NCBI GenBank assembly: GCA_947085505.1 | Contig: CAMTWI010000004.1 | Location: forward strand, 1,800-65,799 | Length of the DNA: 64,000 nt | Direction of reading: 5' to 3' | DNA from: an uncultured bacterium | GTDB taxonomy: Bacteria > Patescibacteriota > Minisyncoccia > Phycocordibacterales > Phycocordibacteraceae | Shown here: piece after piece, positions 38,068 to 64,000 of the stretch | Numbering within the stretch: the stretch's first letter is position 1 | How the letters are laid out: every line of letters begins with the position of its first letter | Made by a program: the position numbers and the translations under genes | The notes under the pieces: model-generated | What the model was told of the DNA's origin: nothing | Databases searched by the model: none | What the model saw: the letters and a program-made list of their open reading frames with translations, nothing else

Positions 38068-38090
38068 TATAATTCAGTTATAATAATGCA

Positions 38091-38993
38091 GTGAACACCA
38101 CTCTCATTCTCGAGGAGCTCTACTCAAAGGAGGAGATCGAAACTGCTTTCGATACTAATTTTGGTCCGCGCATAAAGGGTATTACTCAGCGACGTTCTTC
38201 AGATAATGAGCCATATATACTCATATTTGCTTCCGCTCGCGGCTCAATAGTGTACGGGGATAGGGTTGAGGGTAGGATTTTCTATTACAAGGGTGAGGGA
38301 TCAGACGGTGACCAGAAGCTTACAACCGCAAATAAGGCACTGATAAATTCAAATCTAAACAAGACACCCATCTTTGGTTTTCGTCAGCATGAGATTGGTG
38401 GCAAATACCAGTATCTTGGATTGGTATCGGTCCTTGAGTGGACCTATGCAGATTTCAATGGCAGAAAGGTGTATGAATTTAAATTCGAACAGGAGGGCTT
38501 AGAGAATCCTCTGCAAAGTACTAAAGAGTGGAATGAAATAAAGAACCAAAGTGAGCTTCCGGACCCATCCCTCACGGGAACGGGTGAAGTAGCTGTATCT
38601 ACTGTATCTAGCATAAAACGAAATGCAGCCTTTCCATTAAAGATTAAGGAGCAGTATCAGAATCGATGTGCTGTGTGTAGAAAATCACGGTGTACGGCTG
38701 CTGGGTACCCAGAGGTTCAGTCCGCCCATATATACCCAAAGGAGAAGAATGGAGCAGATGACTTAAGAAATGGCATAGCTCTATGCAGGCTTCATCACTG
38801 GGCTTTTGACGAGGGGCTGCTGGCTATTTCTGATGATTTAACTCTACTCGTTAACAATGCCATTACAAAGGATGAAGACTACGAAGAAATTAGCAAGTAC
38901 GCCGGAGTAGCTATCCTGCCTCCTCTGGACAAACGATATACACCGTTGCCACTTTTTCTGACAGAGCATAGAAAGCTACATGGGTTTGAGTAG
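38091..38993 (+). CDS. SRA(YDG)-like domain fused to HNH nuclease; putative modification-dependent (type IV) restriction enzyme
   Basis: 300 aa, GTG start. N-terminal YILIFASARG..FYYKGEGSDGDQKLTTANKALINS parallels the SRA motif Y.L...GGY....F.YTG.GG...DQKLT..N.AL. C-terminal CAVCRK..AHIYPK..NGIALCRLHHWAFD is HNH. Confidence 0.75.
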   Translation: MNTTLILEELYSKEEIETAFDTNFGPRIKGITQRRSSDNEPYILIFASARGSIVYGDRVEGRIFYYKGEGSDGDQKLTTANKALINSNLNKTPIFGFRQHEIGGKYQYLGLVSVLEWTYADFNGRKVYEFKFEQEGLENPLQSTKEWNEIKNQSELPDPSLTGTGEVAVSTVSSIKRNAAFPLKIKEQYQNRCAVCRKSRCTAAGYPEVQSAHIYPKEKNGADDLRNGIALCRLHHWAFDEGLLAISDDLTLLVNNAITKDEDYEEISKYAGVAILPPLDKRYTPLPLFLTEHRKLHGFE

Positions 38994-39083
38994 GTGTTGA
39001 TGAGTGCGAGTGCCCCCTAGGACAAGATTCAGCTTGCTTTAGAAGGGTATTGTGCCCCCAGGTACGAGTAGTATGATTCCTTC

Positions 39084-40088
39084 ATGAAGCTAAACTACGA
39101 AATAACGCCTGAGAATCTCAAGATTCTGGAAATCAAGCAAGTACTGCTGGATAAAGAGAAATTCGGTGCTCTTACGTTTGATCGGGCTTATTTACCTCTG
39201 CATGAGCTCAGGAAGATGTTTGTAGAGTTTCAAGAGCTCGACTACGCTTCTAAACTGGCTCCTGACGAAGTGCAAGAAGTGGAAAACTACAAGAATCAAC
39301 TTCTTGACTATGTTCGCCGAGTTCACTCAATAGATCCTACTACTGATCCTACTTTTAATACGAATGTTCGTGAGAATTTAGAAAATGAAATAATAAGTTT
39401 TTGTCAGCGAGTGAGTAAGGTTTTGAGAAACAACCTTGTCTATCTTAGACAGGAGCTTGCTCTTAGGAATCAGGACCAGCAAAGCTTAGCTGAAGAACAA
39501 AAAGCTACTGTGCAAGCGAGGAAGCAGGCAGAAGAAACGTTAAGTCAACTACAAGCAAAGCTTGAGGAACTAACTAGTAGAGAGCAGCAGCTCGAAAACA
39601 AATCAGGCGAGTTTGGTGCGAAGGCTCTCGGAATTCATTTTGGTACCGAGACAGATAACTATTCGGATGTAGCTAATAAGTGGTTTGTTGCCTCAATCGT
39701 TGCCTATCTTTTTCTTGTTTTCATCGTAATTGGTATAGGAATCTATTACAGTTTTTTCCATGGCGGCGGCTGGGAAACTCTTACGTGGCAGGAGGGAACC
39801 GCAAAGCTCTTTCTCTTTGCGGCTCTATGGTACGGATTAACCTTCATTACACGAAACTACAATGTAAATTCACATCTTGCTGCTGTAAATCGGCATCGTG
39901 CAGCAGTCGCTAAAACTCTCGAAGATTTCCTTGCTTCAAGTCCATCTGCTACTGGTGAAATGTTGAAGAATGGTACAGAAGCCATGTTTCGGCATGTAGC
40001 GATCGGTTTCATAACGAAAGCCGAAAAGGATTCTGGAAACCCTCTTCTTGAAGTCGTGAATAAGGTGGTGAATCCAAAAGGGGAATAA
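39084..40088 (+). CDS. Coiled-coil protein with C-terminal double-TM domain (unknown function)
   Basis: 334 aa. Heptad-rich QQSLAEEQKATVQARKQAEETLSQLQAKLEELTSREQQLE, then WFVASIVAYLFLVFIVIGIGIYY and LFLFAALWYGLTFI helices. Confidence 0.55.
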   Translation: MKLNYEITPENLKILEIKQVLLDKEKFGALTFDRAYLPLHELRKMFVEFQELDYASKLAPDEVQEVENYKNQLLDYVRRVHSIDPTTDPTFNTNVRENLENEIISFCQRVSKVLRNNLVYLRQELALRNQDQQSLAEEQKATVQARKQAEETLSQLQAKLEELTSREQQLENKSGEFGAKALGIHFGTETDNYSDVANKWFVASIVAYLFLVFIVIGIGIYYSFFHGGGWETLTWQEGTAKLFLFAALWYGLTFITRNYNVNSHLAAVNRHRAAVAKTLEDFLASSPSATGEMLKNGTEAMFRHVAIGFITKAEKDSGNPLLEVVNKVVNPKGE

Positions 40089-40203
40089 AATCAAAGGATA
40101 CGGTTGATTTCAAAATGATTCAGACCGTATGGAATGAGATAAAATTAGGTTACGGCTCCACACATCGTTTAAAATTTTAGGTAAACCAACTTTTCAATCA
40201 TCT

Positions 40204-40770
40204 TTAGGACAAAGAGTCTTTGGGGGTTGCAAGTTTTATATAGTCTAGCAATCGGTACTGATCTATAAGTTCAATCGGCTTGTCTTCAGCAAACTTTCTA
40301 GCTTCAAGAGTGAATCCTGCAGTAGTGATGAAATAGGCTTGCCCGTTTGCTAGGCGACCTGCTATAGCCCCGTAGAAATCTCTAATAGCTGACACCGGCA
40401 CCTGTCGAGTGATGTATCTCTTGCACTGAATATAGTTTGTAACACCGTTTTTCGTGGCAATCACATCAATCCCACCGTCGTAAGATTTTCCGACCGCTTC
40501 AGCCTGATACCCAAGTTGTATAAAAAGCTCAGCAATATAATCCTCGAACTCTTTAGGACTCATGCCCCGTATCCACTGGATAAGATCTCTATCAGATCTC
40601 CATTGCGCACCAGCCTTGAACTGCCGCTTGTTCCTCCATGAGCGATAGAGATCAGGTAAAACGACTTCGACCAGTACCCGAAGAACAAGCATTCCGAACA
40701 CGAAGACAATAAGCCATCCGAACACGGGTGAAAGCATTTCCACAATAGGATTGCTCGGAAAGATATCCAT
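40204..40770 (-). CDS. Membrane-anchored Mrr-like restriction endonuclease
   Basis: 188 aa. N-terminal TM (FGWLIVFVFGMLVLRVLV). FEDYIAELFIQLGY..DGGIDVIA...IQCKRY..V..IRDFYGA..FITTAGFT matches the Mrr_cat D-(Q/E)xK core (recalled). Confidence 0.8.
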   Translation of the reverse strand: MDIFPSNPIVEMLSPVFGWLIVFVFGMLVLRVLVEVVLPDLYRSWRNKRQFKAGAQWRSDRDLIQWIRGMSPKEFEDYIAELFIQLGYQAEAVGKSYDGGIDVIATKNGVTNYIQCKRYITRQVPVSAIRDFYGAIAGRLANGQAYFITTAGFTLEARKFAEDKPIELIDQYRLLDYIKLATPKDSLS

Positions 40771-40773
40771 TTC

Positions 40774-40974
40774 TTAAATACTATCACTCGGGCGTGCCTG
40801 CGTTTGAGGCTCTTCGGATAAGGCATCATAGAGCCTGGCCAAAGATCCTAAGAAAAGCTGAGCCTCGCCGGGAGAAACTTCAAGGTCGTAACTATTCTGG
40901 AAATAAGTGATCAGCCTTGTTTCCAAGCTTTTAGAAAACTTAAAATCAGAAGAGACGCTCTCTACAGTCCTCAT
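40774..40974 (-). CDS. Small hypothetical protein, paralog of 42340..42537
   Basis: Start moved to ATG 40974 (66 aa). LETRLITYFQNSYDLEVSPGEAQLFLGSLARLYDAL aligns with ELTNRTIAYYLGRGESISPETAQEYLRDMSSLYGSF. Confidence 0.4.
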   Translation of the reverse strand: MRTVESVSSDFKFSKSLETRLITYFQNSYDLEVSPGEAQLFLGSLARLYDALSEEPQTQARPSDSI

Positions 40975-41311
40975 ATACAAAAGTCTTTTGAGCCTCTGAA
41001 CTACACTTTGACCACTTGATATAATCCCCGTCAAAAGTGCCACAAGTACTCTGCGTGTGTGTTCCCATGGCAATACCCATTTCAGTAAGGCAGTCTCCGT
41101 ATGCTTTCATTTTAGTGTCCTGCGCTTTCATGGCTCTAATATTTGCTTCCTTCTGCGCGGCTTGCTGTTCAGGAGTTGGATTCGCACGCTGTACGGCCTG
41201 CTGGTGTACCTGAACGTCTTTCTGAGGCAGATAATAGCCGTAGTAATAACCAACAGAAATACCTCCTATTATCACGGCTAGGAGTGCAATCGGATCGAGG
41301 AAATTCTTCAT
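40946..41311 (-). CDS. Hypothetical membrane-anchored protein
   Basis: 121 aa. N-terminal TM (IALLAVIIGGISVGYYYGYY). Gln/Ala-rich linker and a Cys-containing C-terminus. Confidence 0.45.
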   Translation of the reverse strand: MKNFLDPIALLAVIIGGISVGYYYGYYLPQKDVQVHQQAVQRANPTPEQQAAQKEANIRAMKAQDTKMKAYGDCLTEMGIAMGTHTQSTCGTFDGDYIKWSKCSSEAQKTFVYEDCRERLF

Positions 41312-41340
41312 GGTCAGTAGGGGGACTGACCTCCCCTCAG

Positions 41341-41562
41341 TTATTTGAGGAAATAAGAAATATCTTTCTTGTAGATCTTGGCAAAGCGCTGAAGTTCTAT
41401 GACATCAACACGTTGTTGTCCCGACTCTACATTTGAGATATGCGACTGAGGCCTGTCGAGTTTCTTGGCAACTTCAGTCTGGGTCAGTCCTGCATCAAGG
41501 CGAGCCTTTCTAAGACGCTCGACAAAAACGGCATATTCCTTGGTATGAACTGACTTCTTCAT
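41341..41562 (-). CDS. XRE-family helix-turn-helix regulator
   Basis: 73 aa. RLRKARLDAGLTQTEVAKKLDRPQSHISNVESGQQRVDVIEL is a canonical HTH_3. Confidence 0.85.
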   Translation of the reverse strand: MKKSVHTKEYAVFVERLRKARLDAGLTQTEVAKKLDRPQSHISNVESGQQRVDVIELQRFAKIYKKDISYFLK

Positions 41563-41589
41563 ACACTAGAGCGTGTATCCAAGAAGTCA

Positions 41590-41608
41590 ATATCCAAATT
41601 ATGGATAT
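41590..41608. promoter_or_regulatory. Candidate operator palindrome in the divergent XRE intergenic region
   Basis: ATATCCA-AATTA-TGGATAT, a perfect 7-bp inverted repeat between divergent genes. Confidence 0.5.
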
Positions 41609-41653
41609 CGGTGGCAATTCGTAAAACAAGCGCTTTAGGTATATTCTTCGGCC

Positions 41654-42295
41654 ATGAGTCCAGAGGTAAGAAAGACCCTAGAGATTGTTTGTGCCGCAAT
41701 GCCTACTCGGCGTCAAGACGAGGAGTCTGATTTTTATTCGGTTCTCCTTACAGAGAAAGATTTTAAAAGGCAGGATCTAAGTATTGATGCTGGAGTCGCT
41801 GCGCTTAAGCATCTGGCTAGTACTGGTTCTGCTTTTGTCGAGGTTGGAAACATTTATGAAGCATCAATTGAAAACTTCGATGACCCTACGTTGGATGGGG
41901 AGCATTGTGTCGACATTTATGTTCACTCCTCTGTTCACCTAGAGCTGTTTGGAGGGTCTTCCATACCTGAGACAAAACCTACTTTTAGCTTTAGTGAAAA
42001 TATTCTAAAAGTAAATAGTCAGGACATATTATTTGGATCAATTGATGCAAAGGAAAAGGGAGCATATATATTGCAGTACATATTCGAGCATGATCTATCA
42101 GAACCTTCTGATTACAATGAAATACATGATCGTTTCTTTTTCGATGATCCAAGTTCTGGTTTTGGGAAAAGATTATACGAGGCATGCCGGATCATACGGC
42201 AAAGAGTTTTTGATATTTCCGGTGTGCGGGACTTTCTAATTTTTAACTCAAGCGACAAGGGCTCTGTAAGGATTAATCCTAAATATCTACCGTAG
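41654..42295 (+). CDS. Hypothetical protein (element-borne)
   Basis: 213-aa ORF divergent from the XRE gene. No motif recognised. Confidence 0.5.
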   Translation: MSPEVRKTLEIVCAAMPTRRQDEESDFYSVLLTEKDFKRQDLSIDAGVAALKHLASTGSAFVEVGNIYEASIENFDDPTLDGEHCVDIYVHSSVHLELFGGSSIPETKPTFSFSENILKVNSQDILFGSIDAKEKGAYILQYIFEHDLSEPSDYNEIHDRFFFDDPSSGFGKRLYEACRIIRQRVFDISGVRDFLIFNSSDKGSVRINPKYLP

Positions 42296-42339
42296 CTATA
42301 CGGTAGGATACCGTACGCCAAATTTTCTAAGCTCCCTTA

Positions 42340-42537
42340 GTGGAGCCTTTTTCATTTAGCCCAGAACTCACAAACCGCACTATTGCCTATTACTTGGGTC
42401 GTGGTGAATCCATATCTCCTGAAACAGCCCAGGAGTATTTAAGGGATATGTCGAGCCTCTACGGGTCGTTTATGGCGTTTGCGGACGTGCAGGAGGGGAA
42501 GGCGGCAGCGGCTTCAGCCGCGCCGTCGCACCCCTGA
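42340..42537 (+). CDS. Small hypothetical protein, paralog of 40774..40974
   Basis: 65 aa. Shared pattern L..R.I.Y(F/Y)......(V/I)SP(G/E).AQ.(F/Y)L...(A/S).LY. Confidence 0.4.
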   Translation: MEPFSFSPELTNRTIAYYLGRGESISPETAQEYLRDMSSLYGSFMAFADVQEGKAAAASAAPSHP

Positions 42538-42577
42538 CTTGATAAATAGCACATACAAGACACATACGAGATGAATC

Positions 42578-43351
42578 ATGGGATACACAAAAATTATTCA
42601 GTCAGGAGATCTAATCGAAAAATATGAGTACGAAAAACCTCCGCCCGAGCGTGTGCCTCGAAAGGTTAAGCCGGGGCGTATCGCTCCGTGGTCCGATCAA
42701 CTTACCGAAGAAAGGAGAGCAGATTGCATACACAAGAGACGAATATCAAGCATTAATCGTTGCCGCCAGTCGTTTTTCCGTCTCGTACGAGCGAATCTAC
42801 ACGCGGGCGCTCCCATCCTGCTCACACTCACAATGCTGGATATCGTGGACCTCAGAACTGCATACGCTTGCTACCACGAATTCGGACAAAGGCTGCGTCG
42901 AATTATCGGAAAGAATACTTCTTGGATTGCTGTGCCGGAGTTTCAGAAAAGGGATGCCGTACATTTCCATGTTCTGATCTGGAATCTACCCCATGAATAC
43001 ATTGAAACCGAACCAGACACCCGTCGAATTCAGAATCTCTGGAGAGCCGGTTATGTTGATCTTGTTCAGACAGACGGTTCGCCTAAGCTTGCTACCTACC
43101 TCGCAAAGTACATGTCCAAAGCGATGCAGGACCCTCGGCTCCTGGGACAAAAAGCGTATAGTGCTAGTCGGAATATATTGCGCCCGGTGTCGTTCAACAC
43201 TCAAACGTCGGTTAACACTGCTTGTGAGGTCTGGGGCATAACTGACGAGACAAAGCCAGAGTATGATCGGGAATTCGACACAAAGTGGATGGGGAAATGT
43301 CGCTATACTTCCTATTCTATCCAAAATATAGATAATGCTAAGGACGCATGA
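42578..43351 (+). CDS. HUH-type rolling-circle replication initiator (Rep)
   Basis: 257 aa. AVHFHVLIWN is the HUH motif and ATYLAKYMSK the Y-x-x-K-Y catalytic Tyr motif, as in small ssDNA phage/plasmid Reps. Confidence 0.7.
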   Translation: MGYTKIIQSGDLIEKYEYEKPPPERVPRKVKPGRIAPWSDQLTEERRADCIHKRRISSINRCRQSFFRLVRANLHAGAPILLTLTMLDIVDLRTAYACYHEFGQRLRRIIGKNTSWIAVPEFQKRDAVHFHVLIWNLPHEYIETEPDTRRIQNLWRAGYVDLVQTDGSPKLATYLAKYMSKAMQDPRLLGQKAYSASRNILRPVSFNTQTSVNTACEVWGITDETKPEYDREFDTKWMGKCRYTSYSIQNIDNAKDA

Positions 43352-44811
43352 AATACATTCTCTACTGTCGAAAATCTACGGATAACGAAGATAAGCAAGT
43401 CCTCTCACTCGATTCCCAGAAGATCGAGCTAGAACGTCTTGCTGAGCGTGAAGGTATAGAGATTGTTGCGACACTTACTGAAAGCCGGTCTGCAAAGGAG
43501 CCGGGTCGTCCCGTCTTCAATGAACTTATGCACCGAATCGCATCCGGTGAGGCCGATGCGGTTCTCTGTTGGAAAATAGATCGCCTTACTCGAAATCCTG
43601 TAGACGGTGGACAAATCCAATGGCTTCTCCAAAAAGGTTTGATCAAATCTATTCGGACCTTTGAACGAAGCTACAGCCCTTCTGACAATGTGCTGCTCAT
43701 GAGTATTGAACAGGCAATGGCTACTCAGTACCTTCGGGATCTGTCTGAGAATGTTAAACGCGGGAATAGAACCAAATTGGAACGAGGAGAGTGGCCAAGC
43801 TACGCACCTTTTGGCTACAAGAATGACAGGGTAAACAAAACTATTCTCGTAGATGAGAATCGCGCTCCTTATATTCGTCGGGCGTTTGAGCTATATGCAA
43901 CAGGTGGGTATGGCCTGAACCAAGTGGTAGAGATTCTTTATAGTGAGGGTTTCAGATCAAAGACTGGAGGCAAGGTTTTTAAGAACCAGATACATCATTT
44001 CCTAAATAGCCGTTTTTATATTGGCCTTATGGAAAGACAGGGAAAACTCTACCAGGGGAAGCATGAACCTCTTGTTTCTCAAGCTACGTTTGATCGAGTT
44101 CAAGAAGTGCTGCACGGAAGACTTCGTCCTTGCATGAAAAAGCATTTCTATTCTGCGCGCGGGTTCCTTAAATGCGAACTCTGCGGATGCATGATCACTG
44201 CTACTACCGCTAAGGGCCGGAAGTATTACTACTGCACAAATGGTAAGGGAAATTGCGGGGCCCACAAGAAATACCTAACTGAGGAAAAAACAGATCTTCT
44301 TGTCTCAAAACTCTTTTCCGAACTGGATATGGATGAGGAATTCATATTGCTCTGCGCGCAAGCCTTTCGAGAGGAGCACGGAAGTACCTCAACATATGAG
44401 GATCTACGTCCTGCAACTATCCAAAAGGAACTGGACGCTCTCGCTCTCAAAGAATCTCGCCTTACCGATTCCATGGCCTCTGGGGTCCTCAAAATGGAGC
44501 TGTACGAAGAGAAAATGCGTGAGATCGAGAATGGACGAACAGAACTCAAATCCCAGCTAAAAAGTATCGAAAATGAGAAGGGGGCCAATGCTACTTTCGA
44601 ACAGGTTCTAGATGTGTTTCTAGAAAGCAGTAGAGCCGCCAAACGATATTTGGAGGTTGATGAACAGGAAAAACGAAAGATGCTCGAAAAACTACTTTCG
44701 AACGCCTCTATCCTTGGAGAAGAAACGGCTTACTTTAAGTTTAAAAGTCCTTATCAGGCACTAGCTCTAGCACCTAAAAACAGGGATTTTCAAATGATGC
44801 GGGCCTACTAG
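43348..44811 (+). CDS. Large serine recombinase
   Basis: 487 aa. N-terminal resolvase catalytic domain (ILYCRKSTDNEDKQVLSLDSQ..CWKIDRLTRN), recombinase domain, Cys zinc-ribbon (CELCGC..YYYCTNGKGNC), C-terminal coiled coil. The 3' end overlaps tRNA-Trp. Confidence 0.9.
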   Translation: MKYILYCRKSTDNEDKQVLSLDSQKIELERLAEREGIEIVATLTESRSAKEPGRPVFNELMHRIASGEADAVLCWKIDRLTRNPVDGGQIQWLLQKGLIKSIRTFERSYSPSDNVLLMSIEQAMATQYLRDLSENVKRGNRTKLERGEWPSYAPFGYKNDRVNKTILVDENRAPYIRRAFELYATGGYGLNQVVEILYSEGFRSKTGGKVFKNQIHHFLNSRFYIGLMERQGKLYQGKHEPLVSQATFDRVQEVLHGRLRPCMKKHFYSARGFLKCELCGCMITATTAKGRKYYYCTNGKGNCGAHKKYLTEEKTDLLVSKLFSELDMDEEFILLCAQAFREEHGSTSTYEDLRPATIQKELDALALKESRLTDSMASGVLKMELYEEKMREIENGRTELKSQLKSIENEKGANATFEQVLDVFLESSRAAKRYLEVDEQEKRKMLEKLLSNASILGEETAYFKFKSPYQALALAPKNRDFQMMRAY

Positions 44812-44870
44812 GAATCGAACCTAGGACGTCGGTTTTGGAGACCGAAGTTATACCATTTAACTATAGACCC
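44800..44870 (-). tRNA. tRNA-Trp (CCA)
   Basis: Minus strand: GGGTCTATAGTTAAATGGTATAACTTCGGTCTCCAAAACCGACGTCCTAGGTTCGATTCCTAGTAGGCCCG. Anticodon loop CTCCAAA. Confidence 0.9.
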
Positions 44871-44948
44871 GGTATTGCCCACGATACCAGATACAGGGGT
44901 AGTGGAAAAGAACCCGTAATTAGAGCGTGCGCGGGATACAATCACTCT

Positions 44949-45983
44949 ATGAAAAGGCTCCTAGCCCCGCTCCTCCTTTTGTTCGTGCTCTTCATACCGT
45001 TTGCTGTGAGTGCACAATCGAATCTCCCACTCTTTGATCCGGACTGGCAGCTCGTGCCGGATGCACACAAGATTGATCCAGAGAACTGTCCTGAAGGGTA
45101 TCCTCTTGGATTTGCAGGAGTGTTGCAGCTCATACAAAACGGCATGAACGCGGCGATATCATTCGGCGTTATTATTTTTGTTTTGATTATCGCGGGCGCT
45201 GGTATCCTCTGGATTCTTACCCCAACGAATCCCGAGAATCATTCACAAGCAAAGAAGATTCTCACGAATGCGGTTATTGGTCTCCTGATTATTCTTTCAG
45301 CGTGGCTTATCGTTGATTTCGTTATGAAGCTTCTCTACAACCCTAACGCTCGTAATTTCGGTCCCTGGAATCAAATTCTTACCGGAGGAGACCTCTGCAT
45401 TAAGCCGATGGAGAATCTTCAACCTCTGTTTAGTGGGAATATTTTCTCAGTTCCAGGACGAGGAACTGGTGCCGATAGTGGAGGACCCGCAAGTCTCGGT
45501 AGTGGGTCTTGTTCTCCAACACTCATAAGCAATGCAGCATACATGGGAGGATACCCTCTTACGCAAGCTCAGGCGAATACGTTTTCCTGTCTGGCACAAG
45601 CAGAAAGCTCTTGCGGCACCAATATTTCAGGAGCCAAGACAGTTGATGGAAGACCAACAACTGCACACGGCATGTTCCAGATCGTCATGGGGTATAACGA
45701 CAAGTGTCATAATTTGAATGTTACGGTGTGTTCTTCAGCTGCAAGGAATGCTGGCTGGCGAGGATCAGGGGATTTAAATTGCTCGCAGGCATTTTCAGGA
45801 GGTAGAGTTAAGCAGGGTCAGGAAGAGCTTGCGCGAGTCTGTAGAGCAGCAGCAGCGAATATTGTTTGTAATGTCTCAGCTGCCGCATGCCTTCTTAAGG
45901 AGCGGCCTGATTTCGGCGACTGGACATCGGACCCCCGAAGTACGAGACAGAAAGCATGCATTGCTACCTTTTCTGGCCAATAA
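44949..45983 (+). CDS. Pilin-like (TrbC/VirB2-like) module fused to a lytic-transglycosylase-like domain
   Basis: Start moved to ATG 44949 (signal peptide MKRLLAPLLLLFVLFIPFAVSAQS). Two TM helices with ..ILTNAVIGLLIILSAWLIVDFVMKLLYN. C-terminal CLAQAESSCG...AHGMFQI resembles the SLT E-S...G(L/M)(M/F)Q(I/V) motifs. Confidence 0.6.
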   Translation: MKRLLAPLLLLFVLFIPFAVSAQSNLPLFDPDWQLVPDAHKIDPENCPEGYPLGFAGVLQLIQNGMNAAISFGVIIFVLIIAGAGILWILTPTNPENHSQAKKILTNAVIGLLIILSAWLIVDFVMKLLYNPNARNFGPWNQILTGGDLCIKPMENLQPLFSGNIFSVPGRGTGADSGGPASLGSGSCSPTLISNAAYMGGYPLTQAQANTFSCLAQAESSCGTNISGAKTVDGRPTTAHGMFQIVMGYNDKCHNLNVTVCSSAARNAGWRGSGDLNCSQAFSGGRVKQGQEELARVCRAAAANIVCNVSAAACLLKERPDFGDWTSDPRSTRQKACIATFSGQ

Positions 45984-45986
45984 TAT

Positions 45987-46562
45987 ATGAATATGAACTG
46001 GAAAATAATTCTTGCCTCTATTTTTCTCATACTCGGTCTTGCAACCATACTTATTACTGCATTCTTAATGCTAGATACTTCACCAAGGCAGTCTATCGAA
46101 GAGTCCCCTCAGGTTCTGTTTCCAACGAGCGGGGTGTTCGAGGCTACGGATTCTACAGGGAGACTTACACTAACGGGTGAAAGTGGTGAACCCATAACTG
46201 TAAAAGATTTTATTCGTAACGGTGAGACCGTTACTGACACTGTGAATCCTGGATCTTTCGTACTTGCTGGAAGTGTTGGTTATTGCTTGGAGGACGGATC
46301 ATGTCCTGAGGGTGCAAACACCGATAATTTCTCCATTACCTACAATAACGAGATTCAATCGTTCAATATTGTTCTACTTGCAGAGCCTCTTAGAAGATCC
46401 AGGGAGGCATCTGAGCGCTTTCTCATTGAAAGGCTCGGTCTTTCACAAGAGGATCTATGCAGACTGAACTACAATCTAGGAGTTCCTTATTTCGTAAATG
46501 AGCAATTCGCTGGTCAGAACCTACGGTTTAGTTTCTGCAAGGATGCTATCGTTCTACCATAG
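45987..46562 (+). CDS. Hypothetical membrane-anchored protein
   Basis: 191 aa. N-terminal TM (ILASIFLILGLATILITAFLML). Lies between the two pilin-hydrolase fusions. Confidence 0.5.
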   Translation: MNMNWKIILASIFLILGLATILITAFLMLDTSPRQSIEESPQVLFPTSGVFEATDSTGRLTLTGESGEPITVKDFIRNGETVTDTVNPGSFVLAGSVGYCLEDGSCPEGANTDNFSITYNNEIQSFNIVLLAEPLRRSREASERFLIERLGLSQEDLCRLNYNLGVPYFVNEQFAGQNLRFSFCKDAIVLP

Positions 46563-46566
46563 GTAT

Positions 46567-47481
46567 ATGAAAAGAATATTTTTACTCGTTCTAGGATTCT
46601 CCCTACTTCTACCCCTTTCTGTAGAAGCGCAGTTCGGTCCCATAGTGCCTGAAGTGTGCCGCACGTGCGCGTGTGGATTTGGTGGAGTGCTTGCTATTGT
46701 GCAAAATGTCGTCAATTTCATGATCGGTATAGCGATTATTTTCGCCACTATCATCATGGTATGGGCAGGAGGTCTCTACATACTTTCTGCAGCTAATCCT
46801 GAAAGCCGTAGTACGGCAAACAAAATGCTCATCAATGCGGTTATAGGTCTTCTGATTGTTCTGTCTGCGTGGCTAATTGTCGACTTTGTTATGAAGACGC
46901 TTTATAACAACGGCAGCGAATTCGGTCCATGGAACTCCATCCTGCTTGGTGGTTCAGGAGACAGCTGTGTAGTGGCGAAGCCAACGACACCACTTTTTAG
47001 TGGAAATATCCTTGCTGTGCCTGGAATGGGAACGGGGAGTGAAAACACAGGAGCGAGCGGTACTGTGGAGCTTGCTGGGGGCTGTACGGGTACGGGTACA
47101 AATTCAACGTGCTCTCGTTTGCCAAGTAATGTTGTATGTGAGGCGAGAGGCTGTTATGCAGATGCAGGGTTGGCAGCAGCGCTGGGTAATATCCGCAGCA
47201 GTGTAGGATGGGCTGTTACAGAAGGGTACCCAAAATCTCGATCCCATCGTGCAGCATGTCACTCAAATGGAACATGTGTTGATGTAGGTCTTCGTCCTAG
47301 AAATTACACCATAGAAAATATTATTGCATTTGACACTGCAGCTAAGGCAGCTGGTTTACGACCCGTTTACGAGGAGAAAGAGGACAGAGATTTCGTCGAA
47401 CAACTCAAGAGAAGAGGGGTGAATGCAATTTTCTTAGGCGATCACATTAGTGCTGATCACTTCTCTGTCTACGCTAATTAA
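46567..47481 (+). CDS. Pilin-like module fused to a putative zinc D,D-peptidase (M15/hedgehog-fold-like) domain
   Basis: Start moved to ATG 46567. N-terminal ~130 aa are paralogous to 44949.. (MLINAVIGLLIVLSAWLIVDFVMKTLYN, GPWNSILLGG, PLFSGNI). C-terminal SRSHRAACHSNGTCVDVG ... ADHFSV resembles H-x-x-G-x-x-x-D ... H zinc ligands. Confidence 0.55.
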   Translation: MKRIFLLVLGFSLLLPLSVEAQFGPIVPEVCRTCACGFGGVLAIVQNVVNFMIGIAIIFATIIMVWAGGLYILSAANPESRSTANKMLINAVIGLLIVLSAWLIVDFVMKTLYNNGSEFGPWNSILLGGSGDSCVVAKPTTPLFSGNILAVPGMGTGSENTGASGTVELAGGCTGTGTNSTCSRLPSNVVCEARGCYADAGLAAALGNIRSSVGWAVTEGYPKSRSHRAACHSNGTCVDVGLRPRNYTIENIIAFDTAAKAAGLRPVYEEKEDRDFVEQLKRRGVNAIFLGDHISADHFSVYAN

Positions 47482-48323
47482 TAGTGTTCTTGTCTCAATT
47501 TGCGTAACCACCCTTTTTGGTGTCTGGCGTAATGCCAAACCTTTGTCGAAAGAGAATCAAGAAGCGTGTCCTCACTTCGTTCGTTACGAAGGAATTCTCC
47601 AACGATTTTGTATTCAAGACCGAGCTCGTTGAGGCGCTCGTCTCTCACGTATTCACGTACGCGTTGTACCTCTTCAATGAGACCGTTCTCGAGCGCCCTT
47701 GAAAGACGTGTCCTGATGCGGGATCGAAGTTCGTCTCGCTCTGGGTTGAGAATTACCCACTCAACAGGGAACCGGGCTTCAGTTGCATCGCGTTCAGGTA
47801 CCTTGCCGTGCGTTTCAATTATTTCAAGTGCTCTAACAAGCCTTCGTTTGTTTAAAGGATCAATGCGCTCTGCACGGCGCGGATCCTTAGCGCGTATCTC
47901 TTCCATAAGAGAATCAGTACTGCGCTTTTCAAGTTCTTTTCGAAGATCTGCATTTGGTTCGGTTTCTTCAGGTAGACCATACAGAAGTGCATCAAAGTAG
48001 AAATGGGTGCCACCAGCCAGAATAGGGCGTTTGCCGCGACCGCGGATCTCTTCGATAAGTCGTTCCGCGTCCTTCACAAAGTCTCCAGCACTATAGGTTT
48101 CTTTTGGATCCCGGATGTCGATAAGATGGTGCGGGATGCCATCCATCTCCTCTTTAGAGGTCTTCTCCGTGCCAATATCGAGCATTCGGTATACCTGTCG
48201 GGAGTCGACAGAGATAACTTCGCCGTTAAATTCTTTTGCGAGTGCTACGGCACGCGCAGACTTGCCCGAGGCAGTTGGGCCGGCAACACACAGTATGGGG
48301 GAAGGGTCATCCACGTGGCTCAC
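47478..48323 (-). CDS. miaA: tRNA dimethylallyltransferase
   Basis: 281 aa. VAGPTASGKSARAVALA P-loop, SVDSRQVYRMLDIGTEK, GGTHFYFDALL. Confidence 0.9.
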   Translation of the reverse strand: MSHVDDPSPILCVAGPTASGKSARAVALAKEFNGEVISVDSRQVYRMLDIGTEKTSKEEMDGIPHHLIDIRDPKETYSAGDFVKDAERLIEEIRGRGKRPILAGGTHFYFDALLYGLPEETEPNADLRKELEKRSTDSLMEEIRAKDPRRAERIDPLNKRRLVRALEIIETHGKVPERDATEARFPVEWVILNPERDELRSRIRTRLSRALENGLIEEVQRVREYVRDERLNELGLEYKIVGEFLRNERSEDTLLDSLSTKVWHYARHQKGWLRKLRQEHY

Positions 48324-61215: not shown

Positions 61216-61286
61216 TGGGAGATCGTCTAATGGTAGGACAGCGGCCTTTGAAGCCGTGAATCTAGGTTCGATCCCTAGTCTCCCAG
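61216..61286 (+). tRNA. tRNA-Gln (UUG)
   Basis: TGGGAGATCGTCTAATGGTAGGACAGCGGCCTTTGAAGCCGTGAATCTAGGTTCGATCCCTAGTCTCCCAG. Anticodon loop CTTTGAA. Confidence 0.9.
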
Positions 61287-61307
61287 CAATCTTGATACAA
61301 TTTCCTT

Positions 61308-61580
61308 ATGGCAACCGTAACTAAGAAGATTGATTCTGAATGGTTTGAGATGATTCTCTCAGGGAAGAAGAAATTTGAGCTGCGCCTCGCAGACTTTGAG
61401 TTTGCTGAAGGCGATACACTTCGCCTTGAGGAATGGAGTGGCGAAGGAGCTAGTCGTGCACCAACAGGAAGGTTTGTTGAAAAGGTCGCTACCTATGTTC
61501 GCAAGCCTGATCTAAAAGGTTGGCTAGAACAGCAGCCTGAACTAATGGAGAAATCATTCTACGTGATTCAGTTTGATTAA
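61308..61580 (+). CDS. ASCH/DUF3850-like (PUA-fold) small protein
   Basis: 90 aa. WFEMILSGKKKFELRLADFEFAEGDTLRLEEW fits the DUF3850 pattern (F..I.SG.K.FE.R..D..F..GD.L.L.E), recalled. Confidence 0.65.
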   Translation: MATVTKKIDSEWFEMILSGKKKFELRLADFEFAEGDTLRLEEWSGEGASRAPTGRFVEKVATYVRKPDLKGWLEQQPELMEKSFYVIQFD

Positions 61581-61604
61581 CGTTACTAGCTTAGACAAAG
61601 CAAA

Positions 61605-61630
61605 GGGCCGGCTCTCTGAAGAGCCGGCCC
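61605..61630. terminator. Bidirectional terminator between convergent genes
   Basis: GGGCCGGCTC-TCTGAA-GAGCCGGCCC. Confidence 0.7.
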
Positions 61631-61636
61631 CTGCGC

Positions 61637-61969
61637 TTATGCGCTTGCCATCACTTTCGGCACCCGGGCGGCGAGTTCGTCGCCAGACATATCAAGTTCT
61701 TCGGCGAGCTTCAGAACGTTGACGAGCATTTTGGTCGTAGCGACCTTGAGGGCCTCTTCGTCCATTTGCCCGCCATGGTCTGCAGCTTCAGCTTCGGCTG
61801 CGATCTTTCCGACTGACTTCATCATGTGAAGCGCACTGTGCCGGACAGCAAAAAGCAGTTTCTGCTCGTCCGAAAGTCGATCGTAGCCCGGGTAGTGTTC
61901 TTCGGTAAAAGTGTAGCGTTCCCCAATGAAGGCCATTAGGGAAGAAAGGTCTGCTGTTGGTGCGCTCAT
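61637..61969 (-). CDS. MazG-like all-alpha NTP pyrophosphohydrolase-like protein
   Basis: 110 aa, GC-rich. HSALHMMKSVGKIAAEAEAADHGG...KMLVNVLKLAEELDMS resembles the MazG-like helix pair (recalled). SD GGAGGG. Confidence 0.5.
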   Translation of the reverse strand: MSAPTADLSSLMAFIGERYTFTEEHYPGYDRLSDEQKLLFAVRHSALHMMKSVGKIAAEAEAADHGGQMDEEALKVATTKMLVNVLKLAEELDMSGDELAARVPKVMASA

Positions 61970-62017
61970 TACGCCCTCCGTTGTTTCTAGACAGAACGTA
62001 GCATATGTTGCAAAAAG

Positions 62018-62046
62018 GTTCCAACATCGTCCCAGATTGCCAGCAA
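62018..62046 (+). repeat. 29-nt pseudo-tRNA-Gln-3'-end repeat, copy 1
   Basis: GTTCCAACATCGTCCCAGATTGCCAGCAA, preceded by CAAAAAG. TATAGA hexamer lies 34 nt from the repeat start. Confidence 0.8.
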
Positions 62047-62057
62047 TAAAGTATAGA

Positions 62058-62318
62058 AAAATCCCCCAGAGCTACTTGCGCGCGGCTCATGGGGGAGTTG
62101 TTGGCTCTATAAAGAGTTTTTGTTCGCTGCTTCTGACACACATGCCTGCATGTCTGAGGGGCGGGGTATGATTTACTTTTATCTCCAGCTGTACCACATA
62201 GGCTGGCTAGTGGACTTGCTCTCCCTTTTTTGGAAGAGATATCCTGCGGTCCATCCCTGACCGTGTTCTTTTATCTGAGATTAACATACTTTAATTAATC
62301 TATACTGTCAATAGCATA
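62058..62318 (+). pseudogene. Non-coding module resembling a skeletonised 23S rRNA domain I segment
   Basis: No credible ORF. Colinear short blocks match recalled E. coli 23S: UCCCCCAG.AGC..GGGGAG; ACACA..AUGC..CAUG.CUG.G; GAG.GGGCGGG; AUAUCCUG; GGUCCAUCC; CUGACCGUG. Confidence 0.35.
62283..62311 (-). promoter_or_regulatory. Sigma70-like promoter pointing leftward (antisense to the module, toward the MazG-like gene)
   Basis: Minus strand: TATTGACA-N17-TATGTT. Confidence 0.4.
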
Positions 62319-62347
62319 GTTCCAACATCGTCCCAGACTGCCAGCAA
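62319..62347 (+). repeat. 29-nt pseudo-tRNA-Gln-3'-end repeat, copy 2
   Basis: GTTCCAACATCGTCCCAGACTGCCAGCAA. TGCTATACT (extended -10) begins 32 nt from the repeat start. ATG of the next gene is at 62376. Confidence 0.8.
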
Positions 62348-62375
62348 TACTGCTATACTCTTTTTGTAAACACAT

Positions 62376-62798
62376 ATGAAATGGTTCGAGACAAAGGAGA
62401 TAAGAAAAGTAGAGACTTTGTCCGAGAGGCAAGCAGCTTTTCTTCGTGAGCCTTCCATAGCTATCTTTGGTCCGTTCAACGTACTATTTAGGGGACATTT
62501 TGATTTCCTATTAACCGGTTTAGCGATTTACATTGCTCTTGGGTTTGTGCTTACGTCTCTTTTTTCTGTACCGATCGAGAGCCCGCTACTGCTGTTAGCT
62601 TCCTACGTGCCTTATGTAGTATTGGCGTACTTTGGAGTTAGACATGGTCGCAGGCTGTCCTGGAACCGCAGAGAGTGGAAGGACTTTAAGGAATTCCAGG
62701 AATCCGAGGGTGTGTGGGTGTTCTGGGGGTGGATAGGCTTAGGAGCACTGCTGCTATGGCTTGCTGTCGATACGTATACTTATATCCAGACGCTCTAG
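62376..62798 (+). CDS. Hypothetical multi-pass membrane protein
   Basis: 140 aa. Three predicted TM helices (LLTGLAIYIALGFVLTSLF, LLLLASYVPYVVLAYFGV, VFWGWIGLGALLLWLAV). Confidence 0.5.
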   Translation: MKWFETKEIRKVETLSERQAAFLREPSIAIFGPFNVLFRGHFDFLLTGLAIYIALGFVLTSLFSVPIESPLLLLASYVPYVVLAYFGVRHGRRLSWNRREWKDFKEFQESEGVWVFWGWIGLGALLLWLAVDTYTYIQTL

Positions 62799-62840
62799 GG
62801 ATATTTTAAGGCTACAAGTGCCAAGGTTCGTGTATTCTTA

Positions 62841-62868
62841 TTGACTTTTTCTAGAAACAGAGTATTGT
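62841..62868 (+). promoter_or_regulatory. Sigma70-like promoter of the high-GC lipoprotein gene
   Basis: TATTGACT-N16-TATTGT, then SD AAAGGAG 8 nt before ATG 62911. Confidence 0.5.
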
Positions 62869-62910
62869 ATCCAACAACTGACACACCGTCAGAAGCAAAG
62901 GAGTTCCTTG

Positions 62911-63360
62911 ATGCGTGCATTACTCGTTACGATTCTTGTGTTGAGCGCGTGCGCCATCCACGGCCCCACAAACGCACAAACGCTTTCGGCAACCCCGATC
63001 GAGCCCCGCGGCCAATCGCACTACCAACAGCACGAGTGCCGCGTGAGCCACGGCTATGCCGTGTGCTACGGCATCAGATATCGGATTATCGAGCGAAGAC
63101 CGGACGGACTCGTCCTTCAGCGGGACCGTTCGCCCGGATACGAGTCAGCCTTTCGACCCAGTCGACCCTACGAGCCGCCTCGTTATGATCCCCAGCATCG
63201 CGCTTTCGGGTCGGACCTCTGCAACGGCAGGCCCTGCCGGGGTCCAGACAGGAGCCCGAACTTCCAGGAGCGGCGCTTCTCCTCCGAAAGGGTCCGAGAA
63301 TGTGGCCGCCTCTCTTCGGAAGAGCTGATGCGGCGACAGAGACGCAACGATTGTCCCTAA
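62911..63360 (+). CDS. Putative secreted lipoprotein, Arg/Pro-rich (high-GC ORFan)
   Basis: ATG at 62911 (the track starts at TTG 62908). Signal peptide with lipobox-like LVLSAC. GC-rich. Followed by a strong terminator. Confidence 0.55.
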   Translation: MRALLVTILVLSACAIHGPTNAQTLSATPIEPRGQSHYQQHECRVSHGYAVCYGIRYRIIERRPDGLVLQRDRSPGYESAFRPSRPYEPPRYDPQHRAFGSDLCNGRPCRGPDRSPNFQERRFSSERVRECGRLSSEELMRRQRRNDCP

Positions 63361-63380
63361 GAGGACAAAACGAAAAGAAG

Positions 63381-63411
63381 GGCGGTCCGGGTTACCTGGA
63401 CCGCCTTTTTT
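63381..63411 (+). terminator. Intrinsic terminator after the lipoprotein gene
   Basis: GGCGGTCC-GGGTTACCT-GGACCGCC followed by TTTTTT. Confidence 0.8.
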
Positions 63412-63454
63412 CCTACGCTATCTAAAAGCTACACTTTGCTTCAATTCGCAAAAG

Positions 63455-63483
63455 GTTCCAACATCGTCCCATACACCCAGCAA
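63455..63483 (+). repeat. 29-nt pseudo-tRNA-Gln-3'-end repeat, copy 3 (variant)
   Basis: GTTCCAACATCGTCCCATACACCCAGCAA, preceded by GCAAAAG. TAAAAT hexamer lies 34 nt from the repeat start. Confidence 0.8.
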
Positions 63484-63495
63484 TGTTCTAAAATC

Positions 63496-63850
63496 TAGCT
63501 CGCACAGCAGAGCAGATTGATACTTTAGAACTATGCATCTGAAAGGCTAGACAAAAAGAAGGTCAGTGCTACGCTACTTATGGATCGGAAATGTCTCCCA
63601 CAGAGAGTACAGGCTCGCTTGGAGGCAGAAAGGGACGAACCCTAACCGACAGCTAAGGTCCTTAAGTTGGTGCTAATAGTGTTTTTCAGAAGCCCCATGC
63701 GGGCCCATGGATGAACGCAAAAACCGAGGGGTTAAGCACACCACCGAAGCTTCGGAGACAAGACCAATCCTGTTAATGGTCAACAAACTGTCTGGTACGA
63801 TCCAACCGAAAAAGCCCGTCGCAGCAATGCGGCGGGCTACTTCTTTATAT
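63496..63850 (+). ncRNA. ~345-nt 23S rRNA domain II-like RNA (mimic or decayed fragment) with its own terminator
   Basis: No ORF. GAAAGGGACGAACCCUAACCGACAGCUAAGGUCC and GGGGUUAAGCACACCACCGAAGCUUCGG match the recalled E. coli 23S H41-region strands. The segment corresponding to H43-H44 is missing. Ends in GCCCGTCGC-AGCAAT-GCGGCGGGC + TACTTCTTT. Confidence 0.5.
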
Positions 63851-63858
63851 ACAAAAAA

Positions 63859-63887
63859 GTTCCAACATCGTCCCAGACAGCCAGCAA
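63859..63887 (+). repeat. 29-nt pseudo-tRNA-Gln-3'-end repeat, copy 4
   Basis: GTTCCAACATCGTCCCAGACAGCCAGCAA, preceded by ACAAAAAA. TAGCAC hexamer lies 34 nt from the repeat start. Confidence 0.8.
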
Positions 63888-63924
63888 ACTCGTAGCACGT
63901 CTCCGCGTTCGCGCGGTTGGATAT

Positions 63925-63952
63925 TTGTCATTCACATTTTCTATGATATAAT
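63925..63952 (+). promoter_or_regulatory. Sigma70-like promoter of the gene starting at 63979
   Basis: TTGTCA-N16-TATAAT. Confidence 0.55.
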
Positions 63953-63978
63953 CATTCCACTATCCCTAGATCCCTTTC

Positions 63979-64000
63979 ATGAACGATTTTAAGAAAAGCA
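63979..64000 (+). CDS. 5' end of an unidentified gene (MNDFKKS..), truncated by the window
   Basis: ATG 27 nt downstream of a TATAAT box. Only 7 codons are visible. Confidence 0.35.

Follow-up and report, generated by a model that had tools for sequence, protein, structure and literature searches.

The window analysed here is a stretch of 64 kb from contig CAMTWI010000004.1 (GCA_947085505.1), and the array that is the subject of this report lies in its region 61216-64000. The region begins with a tRNA-Gln(UUG) gene, behind which four direct copies of a 29-nt repeat are located on the plus strand (GTTCCAACATCGTCCCA..CCAGCAA; GTTCCAACATCGTCCCAGAYTGCCAGCAA). The copies delimit four cassettes, A to D (Table 1), each of which consists of cargo and one copy of the repeat, hereafter called the motif, at its 3' end. 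Cassettes A and C contain two open reading frames (ORFs) each, and the cargo of cassettes B and D is non-coding. An earlier note on this DNA had placed the four copies correctly. Copy 3 contains three mismatches and copy 4 one, and 0.00 matches are expected in shuffled sequence. No further match to the 29-mer, or to its 17-nt core with up to three mismatches, is present in the rest of the 64 kb, all core promoters included. The region is probably an integron-like array of four mini mobile cassettes, which were stacked at the 3' end of tRNA-Gln by site-specific capture and loss.

The motif defines a repeat family of Patescibacteria

A scan with GTTCCAACATCGTCCCANNNNNCCAG against one genome per species returned at least 116 stretches from more than 50 assemblies, and the family-wide counts given in this report rest on the matches listed. 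Every stretch among them comes from a metagenome-assembled genome (MAG) of Patescibacteria, with the labels Paceibacterota/Parcubacteria, Nomura-, Kaiser-, Azam-, Jorgensen-, Nealson-, Berkelbacteria, and others. The 158 unique copies have a 35-nt consensus, A.AAAG-GTTCCAACATCGTCCCAGACnGCCAGCAA, in which conservation sets in at position -6 (A in 85% of the copies) and stops abruptly after ..CAGCAA. None of the positions downstream of ..CAGCAA exceeds 0.35 bit in these 158 copies. The A-tracts that had been noticed in front of copies 1, 3, and 4 are real and belong to the A.AAAG part of the consensus. A common variant of the motif, ..CCAGCCA, parallels tRNA-Gln genes in which the CCA is encoded (..CCCAGCCA). 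A profile search detected many more diverged copies, 278 of them unique at 18 bits or more. All copies are on one strand in 70 of the 71 multi-copy loci, and their spacing has a median of 611 nt (5-95%: 290-1840 nt).

The motif contains no dyad symmetry, palindrome, inverted arms, or RNA or single-stranded DNA structure, and its conservation is purely at the level of sequence. Single-stranded DNA folds of both strands of the four copies range from -0.1 to -5.8 kcal/mol and share no hairpin. Seven of the eight fold z-scores are within -1.2 to +1.1; the outlier, the bottom strand of copy 1 (z = -2.9), owes its value to the flank. Readings of the motif as a sigma54, extracytoplasmic function sigma factor (ECF), -35/-10, or attC core site were judged by eye and dropped, as the spacing or register did not fit. 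Rfam searches at the gathering threshold for the window, and at E<=10 for the region and for the non-coding cassettes individually, returned only tRNAs and assigned the motif to no family. A literature search found neither the repeat sequence, in either orientation, nor such arrays in Patescibacteria. The repeat family is widespread in Patescibacteria and apparently undescribed.

The motif resembles the 3' end of tRNA-Gln and is linked to it

The likeness of the repeat to the tRNA-Gln 3' end, pointed out in the earlier note, is significant and specific. In global alignments with the motif, the tRNA-Gln end of the window scored 9.0, compared to 4.0 for the next window tRNA (Ser) and -3.4 +/- 2.7 for shuffled motifs, and none of 5000 shuffles reached 9.0. 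Among 23 tRNA types, tRNA-Gln(UUG) matched the motif best. The loci also contain about 25 orphan 26-mers, GGTTCGATCCCTAGTCT[G/C]CCAGCAAT, which correspond to the last 26 nt of the tRNA-Gln gene without the tRNA body. When the motif is aligned to such an orphan end (GGTTC---GATC--CCTAGTCTGCCAGCAAT against GGTTCCAACATCGTCCCAGACTGCCAGCAAT), 23 of 26 positions are identical with two gaps (score 14.5; 0 of 5000 shuffles). By these alignments, the motif is a diverged derivative of the T-loop-to-3'-end sequence of tRNA-Gln, which is longer by a 5-nt insertion fixed in all lineages. The variable part of the motif shows a weak trend towards the tRNA-Gln end of its own lineage (mean score 0.89 vs 0.12), which was not used as evidence.

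The motif is also linked to tRNA-Gln by position. The loci fetched with the motif contain 36 tRNA-Gln genes, 28 of which have a same-strand motif within 1.5 kb downstream, and other tRNA types are rare. Arrays were present at five of seven tRNA-Gln loci that had been fetched independently of the motif, through the upstream metalloprotease gene. At loci without a tRNA, the 29-mer follows orphan tRNA-Gln ends in arrays, and it is not scattered in the manner of a promoter or a repetitive extragenic palindrome (REP), which had been considered as an alternative. The orphan ends are located behind assorted housekeeping genes (AlaS, YchF, YebC, Xth, HI0933-like). For 31 of 70 arrays, a tRNA-Gln or orphan end is found no more than 2.5 kb upstream, in most cases at a distance of one module, whereas on the downstream side this holds for only 1 of 64.

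Orphan ends vary between related loci. The Logan contig L001 (sample ERR3478709) comes from the same organism and extends the window to approximately 67.2 kb; the extended window is referred to as ext. An orphan end lies directly on the stop codon of its HI0933-like gene (L001 3488-3513, window-equivalent 65809-65834). The same stop codon carries an orphan end in L051, L027, and the distant L034 (60% amino-acid identity), and the end is absent behind the HI0933-like gene in L119 (91% amino-acid identity), L126, L076, L056, L082, and L005. Therefore, the orphan sites themselves are gained and lost.

Cassettes of cargo and one motif are gained, lost, and shared

The public genome nearest to that of the window is MAG JALHML01 (Bin_32_2_1), with approximately 91% nucleotide identity across the flanking genes. 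The flanks of its locus L051 are 91-92% identical to those of the window. Between the tRNA-Gln end and the position of copy 4, L051 contains a single 411-nt cassette with a 129-residue NUDIX gene, whereas the same interval of the window measures 2.56 kb and includes three more motif copies, giving four cassettes in place of one. The two sequences diverge exactly after ..CCCAGCAAT, and the first cassette begins directly behind the attachment-like site formed by the tRNA-Gln end. The block of cassette A is wholly absent from L051, and in L058 conservation is limited to the 110-residue ORF and the motif.

The orphan ends of L051 and ext are a clean filled and empty pair. The filled site of L051 reads ..GTCTGCTAGCAA/TATTCAGG..(368 nt)..GGTTCCAACATCGTCCCAGACACCCAGCAA/ACTGATATAG, where the slashes mark junctions, and the insert consists of 368 nt of cargo plus the motif behind ..GCTAGCAA of the orphan site. 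The empty site of ext reads ..GCCAGCAA/ACTGATATAG (also written ..GTCTGCCAGCAA/ACTGATATAG).

Unrelated genomes have cassettes in common: 765 nt with 79% identity in L003 and L082, 633 nt with 88% in L008 and L086, 472 nt with 84% in L040 and L108, and 474 nt with 86% in L028 and L061. The high-scoring segment pairs in these cassettes end 0-6 nt from motif copies. The L028/L061 cassette follows a motif in L028, whereas in L061 it follows an orphan tRNA end. Its similarity starts right after CCAGCAA, continues through the cassette's own 3' motif, and then stops; L040/L108 and L003/L082 behave likewise. Insertions and deletions comprise cargo plus motif and never the motif alone, and motif copies are confined to arrays. 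Judging from these junctions, what varies as a unit is cargo plus 3' motif, and the unit is joined directly behind ..CAGCAA. Hence there are n motifs in an array of n cassettes, which is located behind a tRNA-type head site.

The earlier note had suggested, as one of two readings, the serial site-specific capture of tiny cassettes at a tRNA-derived site with integron-like logic. The suggestion is supported by the presence and absence of modules between genomes with approximately 91% identity, with junctions exactly after ..CAGCAA, by the occurrence of the same cassette behind a motif or an orphan end, by the position of the heads upstream of the arrays, and by the significant likeness of the repeat to the tRNA-Gln end.

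Cassettes carry diverse genes and probable small RNAs with their own promoters

The cargo measures 0.27-1.1 kb in the window and 0.3-1.8 kb family-wide. When 169 modules were classified by their main ORF, 85 had it on the motif strand and 44 on the opposite strand; 24 were ambiguous and 16 non-coding. Same-strand genes start 15-25 nt after the motif and have an extended -10 box (TGnTAnnnT) approximately 6 nt before the ATG, as in leaderless transcripts. The same extended -10 box and leaderless start are found in the first cassette behind a bare tRNA end (ext, L003, L027, L036, L044, L051, L087, and L120). Because the identical start follows the bare tRNA end, the cassette promoters are part of the cargo and independent of the motif. 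Terminators lie directly upstream of many motifs. Since plus-strand terminators are usually just upstream of it, the motif is presumably mostly untranscribed.

The 121 cargo proteins matched 64 Pfam families (among them HAD, serine hydrolases, NUDIX, AKR, SDR, and GNAT), most of the proteins being unmatched, and no recombinase was found among them in the Pfam scan. The GC content of the cassette genes is heterogeneous (0.45-0.62), with the extremes in the window represented by the DUF3850 gene (0.45) and the lipoprotein-like ORF (0.62). The 140-residue membrane protein of cassette C has no relative but itself in a collection of 5.8 billion protein clusters. The module labels given in the earlier note stood in part. 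DUF3850 was confirmed. The label 'MazG-like' for the 110-residue ORF of cassette A is unsupported by Pfam, PHROG, and PDB, and a homologue of this ORF was found only in the closest relative. The description of cassettes B and D as 23S-like is weak, as it amounts to one 25/30 match and no Rfam LSU family.

The cargo of cassette B is a probable minus-strand small RNA (sRNA) of approximately 230 nt. It has a minus-strand promoter, TTGACA-17-TATGTT (62311..62283), and, on the same strand, a terminator made of a hairpin and a T-run at ~62095-62060; the fold z-score is -3.2, no ORF of 45 or more residues spans the cargo, and no Rfam family was assigned. The cargo of cassette D is a probable plus-strand sRNA of approximately 340 nt, with a -10 box TAAAAT at 63489-63494, a terminator at 63813-63838, a fold z-score of -3.4, and likewise no Rfam family. 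Positions 63638-63667 of cassette D match E. coli 23S rRNA 983-1012 at 25 of 30 positions (31 bits; best of 200 shuffles 28.3), and a colinear 21/28 match to 23S rRNA 1136-1163 follows within the stretch 63638-63755. The minus strand of cassette B at 62121-62156 matches 23S rRNA 1045-1080 at 28 of 37 positions, which is within the range of shuffles. All three 23S-like stretches are near the GTPase-associated region of domain II. The Rfam LSU models did not match the non-coding cassettes at E<=10.

A conserved 32-nt block, cT[A/G]GACAGAACcTAnCAtannTTGCAnAAAG, is located directly 5' of 33 of the 278 motif copies, including copy 1 of the window, and is called the long form. It is also present in L008, L036, L037, L046, L075, L082, L114, and other loci. 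The block has the form of an extended -10 promoter on the minus strand, and in 32 of 33 cases it serves a minus-strand ORF. It was considered as the upstream region of one conserved gene, which was rejected, as the 32 ORFs fall into 31 unrelated clusters. The block and motif appear to be a promoter-plus-site unit reused by unrelated cargos.

Searches for a recombinase and a parent element

The earlier note had reported no recombinase at this locus, and the wider context agrees: none is encoded upstream of the array (Dus, DnaX, M10 peptidase) or in the 3.2 kb past nt 64000, where ext does not contain a further motif copy either. A search of 2.9 million viral contigs (IMG/VR) with the 17-mer gave no intact parent element with the motif. 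The 17-mer matched, over up to 21 nt, 34 high-GC phage contigs (L127-L160), which were rejected as a chance coding match within a conserved C5-cytosine methyltransferase gene (..VVWDDVGTFDG..PCQPFS); the match encodes ..VVWDDVGTF.. on the other strand and is a trap for motif searches. The tRNA-Gln or orphan end had 0 matches in the viral contigs, and the motif was absent from PLSDB plasmids and INPHARED phages.

Five array-flanking ORFs combine a Sigma70 region 4 with a HARE-HTH domain (L010 820-1938, L072 40-1059, L117 3153-4271, and two more). Synteny holds for at least three, those of L010, L072, and L117, which are located a few kb upstream of one array locus anchored at an orphan end. These proteins may be a DNA-binding candidate for the motif; mere synteny is the alternative.

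Proposed mechanism and alternative explanations

We infer that the cassettes move by site-specific recombination with circular intermediates, catalysed by a dedicated or a host recombinase. A recombinase encoded elsewhere in the genome would recognise the conserved left arm GGTTC...CCAG, diverged forms of which would be shared by the tRNA end, its orphan copies, and the sites of the cassettes. Strands would be exchanged within CAGCAA(T) or immediately behind it. Cassettes in circular form could integrate directly behind the tRNA-Gln end, an orphan end, or the site of a resident cassette, and recombination between two direct sites would excise a cassette. As the junction is located behind its last base, the tRNA gene would remain intact. 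The outcome would be a fast-turnover store of accessory genes, with one site serving as currency across Patescibacteria. There is a fair chance, though less than even, that this is a phylum-wide cassette system of Patescibacteria unrelated to integrons, with docking at the tRNA-Gln end or its 26-bp copy, a 35-bp non-palindromic cassette site, and either a novel recombinase or a host enzyme that reads tRNA ends.

Several observations weigh against site-specific cassette capture. No recombinase is recurrent among the 294 ORFs that flank arrays at 116 loci (Pfam scan; no integrase, resolvase, or transposase family), and clustering of 1307 ORFs did not disclose a recurrent recombinase either. Among the sampled ORFs of the window, only one encodes a recombinase, of the large serine type; it lies at a distance of 17 kb in a separate integrated element. 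The site is asymmetric with only its left side conserved, which is unusual for sites of tyrosine or serine recombinases, and the invariance of the 17-mer across classes might equally reflect a DNA-binding protein with another role. For 39 of 70 arrays there is no recognisable tRNA-like end within 2.5 kb upstream, and the proposed mechanism does not account for the arrival of orphan ends at the 3' ends of housekeeping genes. Furthermore, all genome comparisons are between species-level genomes. Exact look-ups of three window proteins matched only Logan sample ERR3478709 and returned no strain-level variants, and one metagenome scan yielded only relatives with 46-72% identity.

RecA and competence-type DNA uptake are usual in these bacteria. 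The motif might be the site of a DNA-binding protein, which acts as a boundary or insulator, silencer, or regulator, while the mosaic arises by RecA-type recombination on the 30-35-bp repeats after DNA uptake. The extreme conservation of two boxes (the 17-mer and CCAGC) hints at read-out by a protein, promoters abut the motif on both sides, including the minus-strand block common to 32 unrelated genes, no recombinase was found near arrays, and a RecA gene is among the flanking ORFs. We nevertheless regard this explanation as unlikely. The insertion sites have only about 5-12 nt in common with the motif (AGCAA at the L051 orphan end; the tRNA end), which is too short for homologous recombination, and homologous recombination alone does not predict the polarity of arrays with a tRNA-Gln-type head and a motif that ends every cassette. 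A regulator site would not be expected at variable distances from promoters and on either side of them. A site-specific process is favoured over plain homologous recombination because the target sites share only 5-12 nt, the arrays are polar, and the 17-mer is conserved across classes. Genomic islands classically integrate at a tRNA 3' end and duplicate the 3' segment, a signature that would fit repeats that are attachment scars of a decayed larger element, which integrated repeatedly at tRNA-Gln and each time left an attP arm and a cargo remnant. The loci include orphan 26-mers as well as partial tRNA-Gln copies of 55 nt in tandem (L004, L052, L124), and the window contains a separate integrated element at tRNA-Trp. 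However, the modules are compact, complete units, each with a promoter and a terminator of its own, and do not resemble truncated remnants. The same module occurs in different genomes with both boundaries exactly at motifs, no parent element was detected in the viral, PLSDB, and INPHARED collections, and the 5-nt insertion relative to the tRNA end is the same in all lineages. Scars of a decayed element are therefore quite improbable.

It is very improbable that the motif is a promoter, an operator, or an RNA-processing signal, a kind of tRNA-like punctuation, of a small-gene regulon. A dedicated promoter or processing family had been the other proposal of the earlier note, which had seen a TAnnnT hexamer behind each copy. 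The hexamers are present in the window 34-35 nt after GTTC, but family-wide no position past ..CAGCAA is conserved and there is no fixed register to a -10 box. Start codons clustered 15-25 nt past the motif in the 85 same-strand modules would also suit a promoter, as would TTGGAA in the reverse complement of the motif, which in the long form is 18 nt from a TGnTAGGTT box. In contrast, about a quarter of the modules (44 of 169) are on the opposite strand and 16 are non-coding, the same extended -10 box and ATG follow the bare tRNA end and orphan ends, the motif has no RNA or DNA structure and does not occur in the remaining 61 kb of the window, and it stays with the upstream cargo instead of the downstream gene. 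Since the cargo runs in either direction and brings promoters and terminators of its own, the motif is most probably not a promoter.

Comparison with known systems

The arrays were compared with integrons, cis-mobilizable elements (CIMEs) and integrative mobilizable elements (IMEs), Acinetobacter pdif modules and integrative mobile elements exploiting Xer (IMEX), and Neisseria intergenic mosaic elements (NIMEs). Clusters of attC sites without an integrase are called CALINs (IntegronFinder, PMC4889954). The arrays resemble integrons and CALINs in being unidirectional arrays of small cassettes, each with cargo and one 3' site, behind a distinct head site (attI there, the tRNA-Gln end here). Diverse and mostly uncharacterised cargo, turnover between close relatives, and a site that is homogeneous within and between related genomes, as in the Vibrio cholerae repeats (VCRs), are further similarities. 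Integrons differ in that they encode an IntI tyrosine recombinase, whereas none was found at an array head or recurrent near any array among the 294 flanking ORFs. The site is here 35 bp, sequence-defined, and non-palindromic, and attC is 57-141 bp, folded, and built of R''/L''-L'/R' boxes. Integron cassettes are mostly promoterless, in one orientation, and served by a Pc promoter, whereas the cassettes described here are self-expressed and approximately a quarter are inverted. The head site is the end of a tRNA gene, and the hosts are Patescibacteria. The array is thus not a classical integron, because the motif forms no hairpin and there is no integrase nearby.

Islands, CIMEs, and IMEs targeted to tRNA genes are similarly inserted at tRNA 3' ends, flanked by tRNA-derived direct repeats, stacked in tandem, and mostly devoid of an integrase, and orphan 26-mers that nearly equal the tRNA-Gln end are present, one of them at window-equivalent 65809. 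However, the units of the arrays measure 0.3-1.8 kb, compared to 5-500 kb, and the junction lies after the last tRNA base, not inside the gene. The repeat is a fixed derivative, 5 nt longer and conserved across classes, and no integrase-bearing partner was found. Xer modules (Acinetobacter pdif; IMEX at dif) are also small, recombinase-less, arranged with short conserved sites in one-site arrays, and presumably moved by a host enzyme. A dif-type site measures 28 bp and is built of two inverted 11-bp arms around a 6-bp spacer, whereas the motif lacks inverted arms and is tRNA-like; pdif sites alternate in orientation, whereas motif copies are always direct. The NIMEs of Neisseria, with repeat-sequence (RS) units and the 20-bp dRS3, which also serves as a prophage attachment site, are likewise mosaics of short units split by a conserved repeat that is a presumed recombination target. 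Their units are non-coding and 50-150 bp long, and dRS3 is of inverted-repeat type with hundreds of copies genome-wide; the array units are genes or sRNAs at few anchored loci.

The length of the repeat would fit clustered regularly interspaced short palindromic repeats (CRISPR; 29-35 nt vs 23-50 nt), but the 'spacers' of 290-1840 nt encode genes, whereas those of CRISPR are 20-70 nt and near-constant in length. REPs and miniature inverted-repeat transposable elements (MITEs), which are palindromic or bounded by terminal inverted repeats, insert as units by themselves, and are scattered between genes, differ from the motif, which has no palindrome, is inserted or deleted as a unit with its cargo, and is confined to arrays. 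A family of sigma-70 promoters or operators would have a fixed register to the -10 box or transcription start and co-orientation with the downstream gene, both of which are lacking here.

Patescibacteria, also known as the candidate phyla radiation, have tiny genomes thought to leave little room for accessory functions, and how they acquire and exchange genes is largely unknown. If the proposed mechanism is correct, the cassettes would be a general route of gene flow and adaptation across a large uncultivated radiation, in dozens of species, and would provide reduced genomes with a shared, rapidly exchanged pool of accessory genes. They would be a second, independently evolved answer to the problem that integrons solve, to capture, stockpile, and reshuffle small genes. 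A sequence-defined 35-bp tRNA-derived site would then imply a recombinase of unknown type with a compact and potentially useful target specificity. As a probe, one 17-mer retrieves cassette arrays, and with them mobile accessory genes and sRNAs, from metagenomes.

Surroundings of the array and minor observations

The tRNA-Gln gene is preceded by genes of Dus, DnaX, and M10 peptidase, and the genes of the ext part are ordinary ones, with a zinc-finger protein, a flavoprotein of HI0933-like type, and a NUDIX protein as products. Many genomes share the gene order Dus-DnaX-metalloprotease-tRNA-Gln-[array]-(zf)-HI0933-like-NUDIX, in which the number of motif copies varies from 0 to at least 7. Window positions 38000-48000, which have a low GC content (0.45 vs 0.53) and include the large serine recombinase, look like an element of the type of actinomycete integrative and conjugative elements or other integrative and conjugative elements (AICE/ICE) at tRNA-Trp.

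Table 1 Features of the array region and of the element at tRNA-Trp
Feature	Position in window	Strand	Remarks
tRNA-Gln(UUG)	61216-61286 (end 61286/7)	+	array head; no encoded CCA; ARAGORN and Rfam 63.8 bits
Primary attachment-like site, GGTTCGATCCCTAGTCTCCCAG followed by CAAT	61265-61290	+	tRNA-Gln T-loop-to-3'-end segment plus flank
Cassette A	61291-62046	+	ends in motif copy 1; two ORFs with bidirectional terminator between
DUF3850/ASCH-like gene (cassette A)	61308-61580	+	TGaTACAAT, leaderless-type ATG
Bidirectional terminator (cassette A)	61603-61632
ORF of 110 residues (cassette A)	61637-61969	-
Long-form extension of copy 1	61986-62017	-	conserved extended -10 promoter/5' untranslated region, reverse complement ..TTGCAACATATGCTACGTTCTGTCTAGA; drives 110-residue ORF
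Motif copy 1, AAAAAG + GTTCCAACATCGTCCCAGATTGCCAGCAA	62012-62046	+	3' site of cassette A; 29-nt repeat 62018-62046; nhmmer 43.9 bits
Cassette B	62047-62347	+	non-coding cargo; motif copy 2 (62319-62347) at end
Cassette C	62348-63483	+	motif copy 3 (63455-63483) at end
ORFan membrane protein, 140 residues (cassette C)	62376-62798	+
Lipoprotein-like ORF (cassette C)	62908-63360	+	high GC, 0.62
Terminator (cassette C)	~63380-63411		visible hairpin
Cassette D	63484-63887	+	non-coding cargo; motif copy 4 (63859-63887) at end
Core flank behind array	63888-64000	+	~91% identical and syntenic in L051
Canonical promoter TTGTCA-16-TGaTATAAT (core flank)	63925-63952	+	promoter scan 11/12
Zinc-finger (zf_Tbcl_2) gene	start 63979	+	gene and Pfam match from L001
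HNH/SRA protein (tRNA-Trp element)	38091-38993
Rolling-circle-type Rep, REP_ORF2-G2P/RepSA (tRNA-Trp element)	42578-43351
Large serine recombinase (tRNA-Trp element)	43348-44811
tRNA-Trp	44799-44870	-
Two proteins with type IV secretion system (T4SS) pilin domain (tRNA-Trp element)	44835-45983, 46498-47481

In the short-read Logan contigs L001 and L002 of the source sample ERR3478709, which together cover window positions 61259-62345 and 62319 onwards, breaks fall within the tRNA gene and precisely at motif copy 2. JALHML01, the nearest MAG, likewise has breaks at motif copies (L018, L051, and L058). Assemblies of such genomes are fragmented by the repeats, because the contigs L001 and L002 end in the tRNA gene and at copy 2, and the motif accounts for the assembly breaks at array loci.

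Some tRNA-Gln loci contain tandem partial tRNA-Gln copies of approximately 55 nt, from the anticodon stem to the 3' end, behind the full gene (L004 6284-6594, L052 3818-3984, L039, and L124 9537-9660). In several genomes the partial copies are separated by a conserved spacer of approximately 30 nt, acagcacatttcactcNctcNcttg, which is a second kind of repeat at this hotspot. Four more distant relatives contain an ORF of 224-227 residues between the metalloprotease gene and tRNA-Gln (L123 8853-9527, L124 8795-9601, L125 492-1166, and L126 8977-9660). Its product has an N-terminal helix-turn-helix (HTH) and a LAGLIDADG-like motif (..WLIGIALYWAEGSK..), and it has no Pfam match.

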